Shown here in pieces: positions 18,001-24,000 of a stretch of DNA of 27,837 nucleotides. Origin of the DNA: a virus (lineage: Duplodnaviria; Heunggongvirae; Uroviricota; Caudoviricetes); the IMG/VR virus record IMGVR_UViG_2537561944_000027; one strand, given 5' to 3'. Position 1 is the first letter of the stretch. Each line of letters starts with the position of its first letter. A program made the position numbers.

Positions 18001-21000
18001 GGGACGTTACACTGTTCAGGCACCTTATAAAGCGGGTGCCGGGCGTGGAAACCCGGAATTCACCAAAGCGCACAACCGCGCTCTTGCGGTTTTTTTGTGT
18101 CATGAGCAGCATTACGCCCAAATTATGGTGGGGCGTGCAGGGCCAACTTCGGTTGGGCCGGGTTCTTTGGTGACCGGTATTTCCACCCCTGTACGTCTCA
18201 CCACCAATAAGGTCGTGGAAAGCCTTGGTGGTGAGTTATTAAAAATCACCAAAGAGGCTGCCATCATGGCTACGATCCCAACCCTCACTCAACCCGAAAT
18301 TGCCATCGTTGATGGTCAGGCTGTTACTTCATCCCTGGCTGTTGCCAACTTCTTCTCCAAACGTCATGACGATGTTCTGAAAAAGATCCGCACGCTTGAA
18401 TGCTCCGCATCATTCACTGCCCGCAATTTTTCGGTGAGTGATTACACCGATTGCACAGGCCGCAAACTACCTTGCTATCAAATAACCCGCGACGGCTTTG
18501 CGTTTCTTGCTATGGGTTTCACGGGTAAACGTGCTGCCCAGTTCAAAGAGGCATACATCAATGCCTTTAACCAGATGGAGAAACAGCTTTCAAAGCTCGC
18601 TGTACCGAGTGACGTTGCACATAACGCCAGCGTTCTCTATTCCTACATTTCATCAATTCATCAGGTCTGGTTGCAGCAGCTTTATCCCATGCTGGAAAAA
18701 GCTGAATCACCGCTGGCTGTAAGTCTGTATGACCGAATTAACGATGCGGCATTTCTTGCCCGTCTTATTCATTCGTCGCTGAACTCTTCAGAGGTAAGGG
18801 GGCGCAAATGATCCGAAATATTTTCAAACGGTTTACCAATCAAACTTTCCGTTGTCCTCGCCCGGGTCAGTGGTACACCACGCCTGCAGGGCATGTTCTA
18901 CGTGTTAGCCTGGTTGACCGTGAATGTCAGAAGGTGATTTGTGAACCGCTGGGTCGTAATTACCGCGTCAGTATGCCGCTCATAGCCTTTCGCTCCGGAA
19001 AAAACATGAAGCATCTCGGAGGTGCAGCATGAGTATGGAGCTGATGGTTAAAGCGATGAAAATTCGAGTGGGTAATCCATTGCGAAAACTGGTTCTGATC
19101 AAGCTGGCTGATAATGCCAGCGATCAGGGTGAGTGCTGGCCCAGCTACCAGCATATTGCTGACCAGTGCGAGATTAGCAAACGTTCTGTGATGAATCATA
19201 TTGCGGCCCTTTGTGAGTCCGGGCTGGTAAAAAAAGTCACCCGGAAAGGTGAAAAAGGTAACTCAAGTAATATCTATCTCCTTCATCTGGATGGTGCAGG
19301 AGATTCACTAGGGGGTAGTGCAAATAATTCACTATCTGGTGCAGCAAATTCACCAGGTAGTGCAGGAGTTGCACCAGGGGGTAGTGCAGGAGATTCACCC
19401 AGAACCAGTCACTCTTTTGAACCAGTCAAAGAACCAGTCAATGAACCAATAGCTGTTGGTGCATCTGCTGATGAGTCTGTGCGAGTTCGTTCAAACCGAC
19501 CGGAATACTCTCCGGAGTTTGAGCAGGCATGGCTGGCATACCCCAAACGTGCTGGTGGCAATTCAAAATCAGCAGCCTTCAAAGCCTGGAAAGCCCGTTT
19601 GAACGAGGGGGTAAACCCCGAAACCATGCTGGAAGGTGTGAAACGCTACGCGGGCTGGGTATCTGCGATGGGCAATAGCGGCACACAATTTGTGAAACAG
19701 GCTGTCACGTTCTTTGGTCCGGATCGTCATTTCGAAGAATCCTGGGAAGTTCCTGCGGTATCTGCAGCCAGACGCGATGACCCGTACTTCAAAGCCAGTT
19801 ACGACAACGTGGACTACAGCCAGATCCCGGCAGGATTCAGGGGGTGATCATGAGTCTGTTAAATGACGTTCAGAAATTCATTGAAGCCCATCCGGGGTGT
19901 GCTTCCGGAGACATTGCGGATGCTTTTGCAGGTTACTCACGACAGCGCGTTCTGCAGTCAGCAAGCAAGTTACGTCAGAGTGGGCGTGTGGCTCACCGTT
20001 GTGAAGGGGATACTCGCAGACATTTCCCGCGCCAGACTGAGGTTTTGCAGGAATCGGAACCGCAACCAGTTCGTGAAACCAGACCTGTGCGCAATTTCTA
20101 TGTCGGCACTAACGACCCCCGGGTGATTTTGTGCCTGACCCGCCAGGCTGAAGAACTGGAGTCCAGGGGCTTATACCGTCGTGCTGCAACGGTGTGGATG
20201 GCGGCATTCCGTGAAAGCCACTCCCAGCCAGAACGAAACAATTTTCTGGCGCGTCGTGAGCGGTGCTTACGGAAAAGCAGCAAGCGCGCTGCATCGGGTG
20301 AAGAGTGGTATCTGTCAGGGAATTACGTGGGGGCTTAATGAGTAATAAATATTGCCAGGCGCTGGTGGAACTGCGGAACAAACCAGCCCATGAACTGAAG
20401 GAAGTGGGCGATCAGTGGCGCACGCCGGACAACATTTTCTGGGGAATTAACACCCTGTTTGGCCCGTTTGTTCTGGATCTGTTTACTGACGGTGATAACG
20501 CCAAATGTGCCGCGTATTACACGGCGGAAGATAACGCGCTGGCGCATGACTGGTCAGAACGTCTTGCGGAGCTTAAAGGTGCTGCCTTTGGTAATCCCCC
20601 ATACAGCCGCGCCAGTCAGCATGAGGGGCAATACATCACCGGCATGCGTTACATCATGAAACATGCCAGTTCCATGCGTGATAAGGGCGGGCGCTATGTT
20701 TTCCTGATCAAAGCTGCCACCAGCGAAGTGTGGTGGCCGGAAGATGCGGACCATATTGCTTTTATTCGCGGGCGTATTGGTTTTGAACTGCCTGCCTGGT
20801 TTATCCCGAAGGACGAGAAGCAGGTGCCGACAGGAGCTTTTTTCGCTGGTGCTATTGCTGTTTTTGACAAGACCTGGAAGGGACCGGCAATCAGCTACAT
20901 CGGGCGCGATGAACTTGAGGCATGTGGTGAGGCGTTTCTGGCGCAGGTTCGCCAGCAGGCGGAAAAACTGGTCAGGGAGATGGCGGCATGACGACGTTAA

Positions 21001-24000
21001 CTCAATGCCAGCAGCAGGTGCTGGATATGCTGATTTCTTATCAGAAAGAACGTGGCTTCCCGCCAACCAATCAGGAGGTGGCAACCATGCTGGGATACCG
21101 TTCGGTGAATGCAGCGGTGGAGCATCTTCGCGCACTGGAGAAAAAAGGCGTCATCACGATAAAGCGTGGTGTGGCCCGGGGGATCACGCTTCATACCGCG
21201 GTGAAGGACGACGACAGCGAGGCGGTCGGGATTATCCGCTCACTGCTTGCCGGTGAGGAAAACGCAAGGCTGCGTGCAACTCACTGGTTACATGAGAGAG
21301 GCCTGAAAGTATGAAGCTGATCCTGCCTTTCCCGCCCAGCGTGAACACGTACTGGCGACACCCCAACAAAGGGGCATTTGCTGGTAAGAGCCTGATAAGC
21401 GAGGCGGGGCGAAAATTTCAGAGCGCGGCGTGCGCAGCAATAGTTGAGCAGTTACGTCGTCTGCCGAAACCAACGTCGGCACCTGCTTCAGTGGAGATCG
21501 TGTTGTTTCCTCCGGATAACCGGATCCGCGATCTGGACAACTATAACAAGGCGCTGTTTGACGCCCTGACCCACGCGGGTGTGTGGGAAGACGACAGCCA
21601 GGTGAAAAGAATGCTGGTGGAGTGGGGACCGGTTATCCCGAAAGGGAAGGTCGAGATCACTATCAGTAAGTACGAGAAAACGGCGGGTGCAGCCGCCTGA
21701 TCAAGAGGAGAAACGAAGTATGAATAATCTGATGGTCATTGATGGTATTGAAGTTCGTCGTGATGCTTATGGTCGTTACAGCCTGAACGATTTGCACAGG
21801 GCTGCCGGTTCTCTGGATAAGCATAAGCCTGCATTCTGGCTCCGCAATGAGCAAACTGAACGTTTAATAAGCGAGTTGCAGATTTGCAACTCGGTCAATA
21901 TAGAGCCAGTTAACGTTATTCGTGGCGGAAATAGCCAGGGGACGTATGTCTGCAAAGAACTGGTGTATGCCTATGCAATGTGGATCAGCCCGTCATTCCA
22001 TCTGAAGGTGATCCGTACTTTCGACATGGTAACCAGCGCACCGGAAAAATTATCCGGACAGGCTGCTGACAAGATGCAGGCTGGTGTGATCCTGCTGGAC
22101 TTTATGCGCCGGGAATTAAACCTGTCTAACTCATCAGTGCTTGGAGCCTGTCAGAAACTCCAGGAGGCTGTTGGCTTACCGAATCTGGCACCGCGCTATG
22201 CCATTGATGCTCCTGCTGACGCGCCTGATGGCTCAAGCCGCCCCACGCTGTCACTGAGTGCACTGCTGAAGCAGTATGGTATCCGCCTGACAGCTAATCA
22301 GGCATATCACCAGATGGCGAAGCTGGGGATCGTTGAACAACGTGAACGATACAGCCGCACTGCGATTAACAACATCAAAAAATTCTGGTCGCTGACGGCG
22401 AAAGGCTGCATGTTCGGCAAGAACATCACCAGTCCCGCAAATCCGCGCGAGACGCAGCCGCATTTCTTCGAATCCCGGTTCCCTGAGCTGTTAAAGCTGC
22501 TCGATACCGTTCATTGAGGTGACCGTGAGAGCGCTACTGACCCCTGAAATTGCCCCGCGTATGGGGATCGTATTGTTCAGGCCCGGTTCAGAGCTGATGC
22601 CCCTGTTTATGCAGGGGCGTGTCCTGCTGGAGCCTGAGCCGGAACGTTATTCATCTTTCGCCAGTGGTGCCGTTCCGGCGGCATCACAACCGCTGGCGGA
22701 TGATCCTGCCGTTCGGGCCGTGTTCCGCAATGAGGCAGTGATTCGTCGTGCTGGTGGAGTGGAATGTCTTGAACGCTGGTTACTTCGTGAAAAAGGTTGC
22801 CAGTGGCCTCATTCCGACTGGCACAGCGAGAACATGACCACAATGCGACACACGCCGGGCGCAATCCGTCTGTGCTGGCACTGCGATAACCAGCTGCGCG
22901 ATCAGTTCACGGAACGGCTGGAATCAATGGCAACGGATAACTGTACCCGCTGGGTGTTGTCTGTTGTGCGTCGGGATCTCGGTTTTGATGACAGTCACGT
23001 TGTGACAATGCCGGAACTGTGCTGGTGGCTGATTCGTAATGACCTGGCGGATGCCTTACCGGAAAGTGCAGCCCGTAAGGCACTGAGATTACCGAAGCCT
23101 GTTGTGCCGTCTGTCACCCGGGAAAGTGACCTTGTGCCTTCGGTTCCTGCCACCAGCATCATCCAGGATAAAGCGAAAAAGGTGCTGGCGCTGAAAGTGG
23201 ATCCGGAGTCGCCGGAGTCTTTTATGTTACGCCCAAAACGTCGCCGCTGGGTTAATGAAAAGTACACGCGCTGGGTTAAGACACAGCCGTGTGCATGTTG
23301 TGGAAAGCCCGCTGATGATCCCCACCACCTGATAGGCCACGGTCAGTGTGGAATGGGTACAAAAGCGCATGACCTTTTTGTGTTGCCTTTGTGCAGAAAG
23401 CATCACGACGAGCTGCATGCGGATACCGTGGCATTTGAAGAGAAGTATGGCTCTCAGCTGGAGCTGATATTTCGTTTTATCGATCGTGCGCTGGCAATTG
23501 GCGTACTGGCGTAAGTGGAGAACGAGCATGAACCTTGAAGCCTTACCGAAATATTACTCCCCGAAATCTCCAAAACTGAGCGATGACGCACCGGCGACAG
23601 GCTCTGGTGGTTTAACAATTACGGATGTGATGGCTGCGCAGGGGATGGTGCAGTCAAAAGCAACGCTTGGGTTTGCTTTATTCCTGGCAAAAGTTGGTGT
23701 TCAGGATCCTCAGTTTGCGATTGAAGGTCTGCTCAATTACGCGATGGCACTGGATAACCCGACATTGAATAAATTGAGTGAAGAAACCCGGCTACAGATC
23801 ATTCCTTACCTTGTGAATTTTGCCTTTGCTGATTATTCCAGGTCTGCGGCAAGTAAGGCTCGCTGTGAGCATTGTGCTGGTACTGGATTTCATAATGTAT
23901 TGCGCGAGGTGGTGAAACACTCCAGAAGCGGGGAATCTGTTATTAAGGAAGAGTGGGTGAAGGAACTATGTCAGCATTGTCATGGTAAGGGAGAAGTCAG

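Follow-up and report, generated by a model that had tools for sequence, protein, structure and literature searches.

The window analysed here, a 27,837-nucleotide stretch of viral DNA, carries in the ninR region of a lambdoid prophage a small gene for a LexA N-terminal-domain protein (LexA-NTD), upstream of rusA, DUF968 and Q. The gene belongs to an unbroken string of overlapping genes in the order O-like, PerC-like, dam, LexA-NTD, rusA, kilA-N, DUF968 and Q, located downstream of the cI/cro switch. The features considered below are the following.

19844..20338, + strand: PerC-like (YfdN-like) putative activator, upstream in the overlapping string (PF06069, E 7e-9)
20305..20991, + strand: Dam-like phage N6-adenine methyltransferase (PF05869, E 9e-46; TIGR01712, E 3e-76)
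20974..20991, + strand: Shine-Dalgarno AGGGAG (20974-20979) and ATGA overlap (20988-20991), read from the sequence
20988..21314, + strand: LexA-NTD gene, a 108-aa ORF with an ATG start (PHROG 362, homologue of SfV orf42)
20988..21191, + strand: LexA-type winged helix-turn-helix, residues 1-68 (AlphaFold2 model, Foldseek to 3jso)
21102..21125, + strand: recognition-helix codons 39-46, S-V-N-A-A-V-E-H, aligned with S-P-N-A-A-E-E-H of E. coli LexA
21207..21296, + strand: two predicted amphipathic helices, residues 74-103 (74-87 and 93-103; AlphaFold2 model, pLDDT 88 at 81-100)
21311..21700, + strand: RusA Holliday-junction resolvase (PF05866, E 5e-15; PHROG 34)
21687..22517, + strand: KilA-N domain protein, overlapping the end of rusA (PF04383, E 8e-26)
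22519..23514, + strand: DUF968 protein with an Orf/NinB-like domain and an HNH nuclease motif (PF06147, E 4e-80)

The probable start of dam is the ATG at 20338, which overlaps the stop codon of the PerC-like gene as TAATG; the dam gene of SfV is annotated at 217 aa. The TGA of dam (20989-20991) overlaps the ATG of the LexA-NTD gene (20988-20990), and the ATG of rusA (21311-21313) overlaps the TGA of the LexA-NTD gene (21312-21314), again as ATGA. The original prediction of a LexA-NTD gene translationally coupled to dam, in one string with rusA, stands, and neither promoter-like nor terminator-like sites were found on the + strand between the LexA-NTD gene and dam or rusA. An IS3-family element is located upstream (approximately 16373-17529) and may lower the expression of LexA-NTD in this particular prophage.

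Pfam matches residues 1-65 of the LexA-NTD protein to the complete LexA_DNA_bind profile (PF01726, positions 1-65 of 65; E 2.9e-19, 69 bits, cut-off 23.7), and BLASTP aligns residues 1-90 with residues 1-86 of E. coli LexA at 43% identity (E 8e-22). Among solved structures, the LexA N-terminal domain 1lea is the closest by sequence (E 7e-16). The assignment of 20988..21314 to the LexA DNA-binding domain is far beyond chance. A Pfam search did not detect Peptidase_S24 (PF00717) in the protein, which stops at residue 108, and the lexA equivalog model TIGR00498 covers it only at positions 1-91 of 203, with a score (70.8) below the cut-off (110.95). A protein without the S24 peptidase cannot autocleave, as had been predicted for this 108-aa winged-helix protein.

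The AlphaFold2 model (pLDDT 79) fits onto LexA from the LexA-DNA complex 3jso with an rmsd of 1.4 Å over 68 residues (50% identity, Foldseek). The modelled winged helix consists of helices 6-22 and 28-35, the recognition helix 40-52 and the wing strands 56-59 and 65-68. E. coli LexA contacts DNA through five residues, Ser39, Asn41, Ala42, Glu44 and Glu45 (PMC3091678), four of which (Ser39, Asn41, Ala42 and Glu45) are kept in the window protein and, together with the wing motif R64-G65-I66, are conserved within the family down to approximately 40% identity. Glu44 is a Val in the window protein and is replaced in every hairpin-family member examined, which implies that specificity or affinity may differ from those of LexA. 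The alignment that the original prediction had called for thus speaks for conservation at four contact positions and against it at the fifth. From the kept contact residues, it is reasonable to propose that the protein would read DNA of the SOS-box type.

The protein is more than a bare LexA domain: the model and the family alignment point to a further conserved module at the C-terminus, overlooked in the original prediction, where helices 74-87 and 93-103 are predicted to form a hairpin; the aligned hinge and cleavage-site stretch of LexA, unlike these, is not predicted to be helical. The hairpin lies outside the Foldseek superpositions, which span 66-71 residues only. Its conservation extends down to approximately 40% identity, A97 and L101 are invariant in the family, and the 106-position profile of PHROG 362 covers residues 1-108 with the two-helix region included (E 1.1e-59). 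The predicted two-helix tail, which is new here, is the defining trait of the LexA-NTD family, and we propose that it serves as a dimerisation or partner-binding module.

As a sequence feature LexA-NTD is ordinary and already annotated; the family is not new, being known as PHROG 362, SfV orf42, pham 237 of Stx phages (PMC8136144) and, in PGAP, "LexA family transcriptional regulator". Our literature search on PHROG 362, SfV orf42 and pham 237 yielded annotations only and no experimental or mechanistic work. Of 5426 complete E. coli genomes, 2233 (41%) carry the gene. The window protein is 98% identical to the SfV orf42 product and 100% identical to the products of several Stx2c phages and of phages Ayreon, SKA5 and Kati, while O26 and O145 STEC genomes carry a gene that is 100% identical in DNA. 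Divergent members, such as L100 (from a Klebsiella-type prophage) and mEp390 gp43, also match PHROG 362. Among 125 divergent loci, DUF968 is the most conserved neighbour (120 loci) and rusA lies downstream in 95. The dam linkage is absent in mEp390-type loci, nearly absent in Klebsiella-type loci and missing from some near-identical prophages; the conserved partners are therefore rusA and the DUF968 gene rather than dam, whose linkage varies between groups. Purifying selection acts on the gene, most strongly on the winged helix: pN/pS among 46 alleles is 0.06 overall, 0.01 in residues 1-70 and 0.21 in residues 71-108, and two divergent groups have dN/dS values of 0.24 and 0.21.

Potential operators were sought with a scoring matrix built on known E. 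coli SOS boxes. No SOS box of at least 10 bits was found in the visible prophage part of the window (7900-27837), hence none 5' of the LexA-NTD gene. The sole perfect CTGT-N8-ACAG in this part, at 17763, lies inside an Ash-domain coding sequence and scores 6.3 bits, compared with at least 12.8 bits for known sites. As the visible prophage is devoid of a credible SOS box, any SOS-box target of the protein would have to lie in host DNA or in unseen phage DNA. On the whole, the original interpretation is partly supported.

The Klebsiella-type relatives, like E. coli lexA itself, have SOS boxes 5' of their own gene. A box of at least 14 bits occurs within 2 kb upstream of the LexA-NTD gene in 28 of 34 such loci (20 distinct sequence versions), and 49 perfect CTGT-N8-ACAG boxes were observed in these loci vs 5.1 expected. 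In many of them a canonical SOS box stands directly 5' of a phage dinI, and in one locus 5' of recA. In L093 a terminator is followed by a TTGCAA-17-AATAAT promoter, the box, orf82 and the LexA-NTD gene. In L100 the box TACTGTTTATTTATACAGTA precedes dinI (PF06183, E 8e-25), orf85 and the LexA-NTD gene, and no terminator-like site was found on the plus strand between dinI and the LexA-NTD gene. In L118 tandem boxes precede recA (E 1e-147 to E. coli RecA) and then the LexA-NTD gene string. Some relatives have the SOS box 5' of kilA-N, with LexA-NTD and rusA directly preceding it; in L045, for example, the box TACTGTATTTATGAACAGTG is located between rusA and the KilA-N gene. The mEp390 phage combines the LexA-NTD gene with a boxed dinI and a umuD-like gene. 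Host LexA regulates both dinI and recA, so that SOS boxes before these genes are expected anyway, and the linkage of such boxes to the LexA-NTD gene could be positional only.

We propose, with a probability of roughly 40%, that the LexA-NTD protein is a RecA-insensitive mimic of LexA made in lytic growth. It would be a small sequence-specific DNA-binding look-alike of LexA, probably a delayed-early product synthesised after prophage induction or on infection, in which the hairpin would take over dimerisation from the missing C-terminal domain of LexA. The dimer would bind CTGT-type, SOS-box-like operators and, once host LexA is destroyed, would restore repression at LexA promoters, because RecA* could not trigger its cleavage. 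Candidate host targets are SOS genes such as sulA, LexA-controlled toxin genes and recA; candidate phage targets are the SOS-box promoters before dinI, recA and kilA-N-type genes in related phages. The outcome would be a damped SOS response and the silencing of rival SOS-inducible elements during phage replication and recombination.

More tentatively, the family as a whole might, once host LexA is gone, re-close SOS operators in lytic growth, shutting down the host SOS response and, in co-resident prophages, the LexA-controlled modules for antirepressor, dinI and recA, and the SOS-boxed operon of the Klebsiella-type phages might then form an SOS negative-feedback loop; we regard this extended proposal as somewhat doubtful. 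If true, it would constitute a new, operator-level phage route to the manipulation of SOS and to prophage-prophage competition, Stx phages included. If LexA-NTD does occupy SOS boxes uncleavably, induced or infecting lambdoid phages, Stx2-converting and Shigella serotype-converting phages among them, would reset the host DNA-damage response, with consequences for filamentation and SOS mutagenesis, for toxins and colicins under LexA control, and for how other prophages are induced in polylysogens such as STEC.

The absence of a canonical SOS box from the visible prophage segment could also mean that LexA-NTD is a phage-specific transcription factor with an operator diverged from the SOS box, activating or repressing phage promoters through sites that differ in sequence or half-site spacing, with little effect on host SOS. 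A precedent is gp6 of the Bacillus tectivirus GIL01, a truncated LexA homologue which binds the different operator GaCACAnnTGTGaC, a non-SOS palindrome overlapping the -35 of the late promoter P3, and activates this promoter (PMC6182141). The family-wide replacement of Glu44 is consistent with such a change, and the new C-terminal module could impose a different half-site spacing. However, the protein keeps the wing motif and four of the five contact residues, unlike a re-targeted helix, and no excess of CTGT..ACAG inverted repeats was found at any spacing between 0 and 20 in the prophage part of the window, in SfV or in mEp390. Moreover, Q already supplies late control in these phages, and the canonical boxes, dinI and recA of the relatives point to the SOS system. 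This alternative is somewhat doubtful; if it were right, LexA-NTD would be one more small regulator of the ninR region, of limited interest.

Synteny and the translational coupling to rusA are compatible with a third role, that of an accessory of the recombination module, in which the winged helix would anchor RusA or the DUF968 protein on DNA or guide it there, or one of the two would be a binding partner of the hairpin. In DUF968 an Orf-like recombination-mediator domain is joined to HNH (Orf-HNH; PMC4118853), and its presence in 120 and that of rusA in 95 of the 125 divergent loci fit a functional association, but may only mirror the conserved ninR layout. In Klebsiella-type loci an unrelated orf67 intervenes between LexA-NTD and the next gene, and the resolvase is either absent or of another RusA-like type. 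Structure-specific enzymes would not need a recognition helix as strongly constrained as this one (pN/pS 0.01), and we consider an accessory role improbable.

The alignments with LexA run through the LexA hinge (up to position 91 in TIGR00498), so that L86-L87-A88-G89-E90 faces the cleavage site V82-A83-A84-G85-E86, with A88-G89 on Ala84-Gly85. Accordingly, LexA-NTD might be thought to interfere with S24 self-cleaving proteins or with RecA*, as a pseudo- or trans-substrate for LexA, CI or UmuD. The A-G pair varies, however, both in close relatives (LLANEE, LLVGEE) and in distant ones (LLSGGD, MIDDQP, LLTRKE), and the stretch is predicted to be helical instead of an extended cleavage loop. Furthermore, RecA* contacts the C-terminal domain of LexA, which LexA-NTD does not have. 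On balance, such interference is very improbable. A functionless, decaying remnant of a captured lexA, to which occasional frameshifted copies (e.g., P0024, P0034 and P0111) might point, is effectively refuted by the selection values above, by the conservation of the full length down to approximately 40% identity and by the occurrence in 41% of complete E. coli genomes.

The proposed uncleavable LexA mimic can be compared with several known systems. With E. coli LexA (1lea, 3jso) it shares the winged-helix fold, Ser39, Asn41, Ala42, Glu45, His46 and the wing R64-G65-I66. Unlike LexA, it has neither the S24 peptidase/dimerisation domain nor Ser119/Lys156 and hence no RecA*-stimulated autocleavage; Glu44 is replaced, the two-helix tail is predicted instead, and the gene lies in a prophage ninR operon with no upstream SOS boxes in the window. 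GIL01 gp6 is the nearest characterised analogue, as both are phage-encoded LexA DNA-binding domains without the cleavage domain. Nevertheless, gp6 has 66 aa, no helical tail and a re-targeted operator, whereas LexA-NTD keeps recognition residues of the host LexA type; BLASTP gives no alignment between the two at E ≤ 100, which implies that LexA-NTD was captured independently, from another lineage of LexA. Phage DinI homologues, GIL01 gp7 and the plasmid protein PsiB have the same proposed purpose, the control of host SOS by a mobile element, but they have no sequence relationship to LexA-NTD and target RecA filaments or the LexA protein, while the site of action of LexA-NTD would be the DNA operator. 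Physical linkage of phage dinI to the LexA-NTD family is seen in Klebsiella-type prophages, and mEp390 carries both.

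The LexA-NTD gene (20988..21314, plus strand) encodes a 108 aa protein that we propose to be a RecA-insensitive mimic of LexA, the best supported reading, to which we give a probability of about 40%. The observations of the original prediction were confirmed in every detail, while its interpretation was borne out in part. The ORF and its translational coupling to dam stand: the ATG (20988-20990) overlaps the upstream TGA (20989-20991) and is preceded by a Shine-Dalgarno sequence, AGGGAG, at 20974-20979, and the TGA of the gene (21312-21314) is in turn overlapped by the rusA ATG (21311-21313). 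The neighbours are also as named, a Dam-like N6-adenine methyltransferase upstream (PF05869, E 9e-46; TIGR01712, E 3e-76) and rusA downstream (PF05866, E 5e-15).

The claimed LexA N-terminal domain was recovered as LexA_DNA_bind (Pfam) on residues 1-65, over the whole 65-position profile (E 2.9e-19), and BLASTP aligns residues 1-90 to E. coli LexA (43% identity, E 8e-22). Among solved structures, the LexA N-terminal domain 1lea (E 7e-16) and full-length LexA chains match best. Peptidase_S24, predicted to be absent, was not found in the Pfam search of the protein, and only positions 1-91 of 203 of the NCBIfam lexA equivalog TIGR00498 are aligned (70.8 bits, below the cut-off of 110.95). The protease domain is a defining feature of canonical LexA, so its absence means that the protein is not a canonical LexA. 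PHROG 362 (“transcriptional repressor”) matches the full length (E 1e-59); the protein belongs to this family and to Pfam PF01726. The PADLOC defence-system library yielded no meaningful match, only CARF3 wHTH-like (E 4e-4, 18 bits).

An AlphaFold2 model built from a 20-sequence alignment (mean pLDDT 79) predicts a winged helix (helices 6-22, 28-35 and 40-52, strands 56-59 and 65-68), a linker of low confidence (residues 71-75) and a tail of two helices, 74-87 and 93-103, with a pLDDT of 88 over residues 81-100. Foldseek superposes residues 1-68 on 3jso, LexA in a DNA complex, at 1.4 Å and 50% identity; the superposition spans only about 68 residues and ends before the tail. An exhaustive profile search returned 4580 relatives at E < 1e-3, mostly canonical LexA or its fragments, and among them full-length relatives (N-terminal domain with tail, 106-165 aa) at identities as low as about 40%, in which the amphipathic pattern of the tail is kept and A97 and L101 are invariant. 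This conserved C-terminal hairpin, as predicted by the model, is new here. The viral loci L084-L091 (match at 5001-5207) have, at the same genomic position, a third architecture of 155-158 aa in total, in which the LexA winged helix is fused to an unrelated C-terminal region of ~85 aa; this points to a C-terminal part that can be exchanged as a module. Certain other representatives (P0132, P0133, P0149, P0152, P0153 and others) consist of two tandem LexA-NTD stretches without an S24 domain and could be single-chain dimers.

The DNA-contacting residues of E. coli LexA, taken here from secondary sources, are Ser39, Asn41, Ala42, Glu44 and Glu45 (PMC3091678; for Asn41 also PMC5999292). Residues 39-46 of the protein read S39-V-N41-A42-A-V44-E45-H; the conservation on which the original prediction depended thus holds for four of the five (S39, N41, A42 and E45) and fails at position 44, which is Val, not Glu. 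The wing motif R64-G65-I66 is invariant in the family alignments. Position 44 is Glu in most canonical LexA sequences retrieved and never Glu in ten divergent tail-bearing representatives, which have V, T, F, A, Y or L; this E44 signature is likewise new. With position 44 changed throughout the family and a new tail in place, specificity may be altered, and the main rival to the mimic, a phage-specific regulator with a diverged operator, is on our estimate somewhat unlikely. Its prototype would be gp6 of the Bacillus tectivirus GIL01, a truncated LexA homologue which binds a non-SOS palindrome to activate a late promoter (PMC6182141). By analogy the two appear alike in kind only, as phage-encoded LexA heads without a cleavage domain. 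Membership of the same family was rejected, since BLASTP of the protein against gp6 gave no alignment, which points to an independent capture of the present family from a gammaproteobacterial-type LexA.

The window covers the left end and the middle of a lambdoid prophage, with the following features:

7937-9139, minus strand, integrase
14837-15511, minus strand, S24-type cI
about 15603-15800, cro
15834-16349, cII-like gene
about 16373-17529, reverse, IS3-family element with two overlapping transposase ORFs
17660-18811, Ash/Rha ORF
19029-19847, O-like replication gene
19844-20338, PerC-like gene
20305-20991, dam
20988-21314, plus strand, LexA-NTD gene
21311-21700, rusA
21687-22517, kilA-N
22519-23514, DUF968 gene
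23486-24280, Q
24783-25034, three tRNAs (Met-CAT, Arg-TCG, Arg-TCT)
25560-27428, NanS-p-like esterase (DUF1737, SASA, DUF6645)

The genes from the O-like gene through Q overlap or abut, and a promoter and terminator scan of 18800-24400 gave nothing above shuffle expectation and nothing isolating the LexA-NTD gene, for which delayed-early expression from the rightward operon is the simplest reading of this layout. Upstream of it, the cII-like gene is broken near its 3' end by the IS3-family element; the separated cII C-terminus (SDARECAAPGVVAFCVCGETNA) continues at ~17590, where it agrees with the intact cII of the related prophage L002. In this particular prophage the element may exert a polar effect on the entire O-to-Q operon, the LexA-NTD gene among the rest. 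The tRNA trio and the NanS-p-like esterase are placed as in Stx phages, with no stx genes between them.

A first alignment-based viral scan was uninformative for context as only near-identical E. coli prophages were returned, and divergent loci were obtained by repeating it with single divergent proteins. The resulting 205 viral loci comprise 80 window-like ones (the best 80 by protein identity), 11 of the P0126 type, 34 of the P0138 (Klebsiella) type (every confirmed match) and 80 of the P0130 (mEp390) type (the best 80 of 157, identity 77-95%). The gene is co-operonic with dam in this prophage, as predicted, but this is not a family trait: among these loci dam is a neighbour in the window-like and P0126 groups alone, and even some near-identical prophages lack it. 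There (L002 3968-4327 compared to window 20305-20340) dam is precisely absent and the LexA-NTD ATG comes after the same 11-codon leader (MVSVRELRGGL). The point where the PerC-like gene ends thus acts as the border of a module, and dam in the window probably starts, in fact, at ATG 20338. Among the 125 divergent loci, which include the best 80 of 157 of the mEp390 type, DUF968 follows in 120 and rusA in 95; the conserved neighbours, corrected here, are these two genes and not dam. In DUF968 a recombination-mediator domain of the Orf/NinB-like kind is joined to an HNH motif (PMC4118853). That the LexA-NTD protein serves the recombination module of RusA and DUF968 as an accessory is improbable.

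The 2.5-kb module around the gene matches 54 phage records and is 95-98% identical in SfV, SfII, Stx2a and Stx2c phages, Kati and others. The protein recurs, identical or nearly so, in SfV (orf42), SfII, SfIV, cdtI, mEp460, Ayreon and many Stx2c phages. The gene occurs in 2233 of 5426 complete E. coli genomes, in up to four copies, is 100% identical in O26 and O145 STEC, and its product is named “LexA family transcriptional regulator” by PGAP. The feature is thus real, ordinary in frequency and already annotated. A full-text literature search found no functional study of the family, only catalogue mentions such as that in an Stx phage survey, which lists it without analysis as pham 237 (pfam01726) (PMC8136144). 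The window-like group, with 46 distinct alleles, has a pN/pS of 0.06, a value biased downward by the choice of the best 80 loci by protein identity (0.01 for residues 1-70, 0.21 for residues 71-108). The dN/dS is 0.24 in the Klebsiella type, which comprises every confirmed match and so does not carry this bias, and 0.21 in the mEp390 type (best 80 of 157 by identity). As judged from these substitution ratios, the gene is functional and under purifying selection. A pseudo-substrate role for S24 proteins by way of LLAGE, a stretch aligned to the cleavage site of LexA but not conserved in the family, is very improbable; a dead remnant, contradicted by the selection data, is scarcely credible.

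SOS boxes were scored with a matrix built from 28 E. coli boxes, on which known sites score 12.8-27.4 bits. CTGT-N8-ACAG with at most one mismatch occurs 8 times in the window (shuffle mean 9.4, no excess), and CTGT-Nx-ACAG is not over-represented at any x from 0 to 20 in the prophage part of the window, SfV or mEp390. The one perfect CTGT-N8-ACAG of the window (CTGTAAGTAACCACAG, 17763-17778), identical in 32 related loci, was rejected as a target and is probably no LexA site: its score is 6.3 bits, and it sits within the stretch of the Ash/Rha ORF that encodes the Ash domain. Within the visible prophage (7900-27837) the best score is 8.9 bits, below the known-site range. The sole window site within the range of known E. 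coli boxes, TGCTGTATATAAAGCCAGAG (4618-4637, 15.0 bits), lies outside the prophage, in AT-rich intergenic DNA between a HEF_HK/Response_reg_2 pair (1019-4487) and an island integrase (5012-6289, reverse), and may be a chance occurrence. Since 7900-27837 holds no credible box, putative SOS-box targets of this copy must lie in the host chromosome, in co-resident elements or in prophage beyond the window.

The relatives have such boxes. The 34 Klebsiella-type loci hold 49 perfect CTGT-N8-ACAG sites (5.1 expected), and 28 of the 34 loci have a box of at least 14 bits, by the above matrix, at most 2 kb upstream of the LexA-NTD gene; these upstream boxes exist in 20 distinct sequence versions, and 25 boxes lie 500-1000 bp upstream. 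Two small conserved ORFs, which may encode functional partners of the LexA-NTD protein, flank the gene in 28 of the 34 loci. The arrangement in locus L093 (for the ORFs also L100) is as follows:

4507-4524, terminator
4530-4558, promoter-like TTGCAA-17-AATAAT
4561-4576, box CTGTACATTCATACAG
4713-4961 (L100 4697-4954), small ORF of PHROG 1813, about 80 aa
5405-5608 (L100 5384-5587), small ORF of PHROG 1212, 67 aa

The L093 box is followed by orf82, LexA-NTD, orf67, a RusA-like gene and DUF968. L100 and 18 other loci have a box (TACTGTTTATTTATACAGTA), dinI (PF06183, E 8e-25), orf85, LexA-NTD, orf67 and DUF968, an order shared by the annotated Klebsiella phage ST846-OXA48phi9.1; no plus-strand terminator-like site was found between dinI and the LexA-NTD gene of L100. 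Locus L118 carries tandem SOS boxes, a prophage-borne full-length recA (3537-4683, E 1e-147 to E. coli RecA), orf77, LexA-NTD, orf67 and DUF968, in this order. Several window-like and P0126-type loci have an SOS box after the LexA-NTD gene, between rusA and the KilA-N gene, where L084-L091 have an SOS-like box, TGCTGGATGTTTGTTCAGTG (16.7 bits); one such natural kilA-N box is TACTGTATTTATGAACAGTG. mEp390 combines the LexA-NTD gene with a boxed dinI and a umuD-like gene. SOS-boxed dinI, recA and LexA-NTD operons in relatives are new here. These associations would tie the family to LexA-controlled modules, and in the Klebsiella type the LexA-NTD gene itself stands under a predicted SOS-box promoter, mirroring the autoregulated lexA of the host. 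Host LexA would bind these boxes anyway, and the loci are kin by descent, yet the varied box sequences and first genes argue against simple inheritance.

The fold, the retained contact residues, the missing protease and the early-right operon position speak for the RecA-insensitive mimic, as do purifying selection and the SOS-related context of relatives. We propose that the tail would mediate dimerisation, that the protein would bind SOS-type operators and that LexA-controlled promoters would be re-repressed after cleavage of host LexA. If so, temperate phages would manipulate the SOS response at the operator level on a wide scale.

Strong LexA boxes were also observed elsewhere in related phages. 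A near-consensus box, TACTGTTTTTA(C/T)ATACAGTA (L002 1043-1062; L001, Stx2a_1447, 6408-6427; 26.5 bits in L001), falls in related prophages within a different cI allele, in the coding sequence for the HTH-S24 linker. Another (22-24 bits; SfV 34170-34189, L001 15934-15953, L015 about 7921-7940) overlaps the first codons of a late-region DNA methyltransferase gene downstream of Q and exists in two sequence versions, in which an amino acid is changed and the box is preserved.
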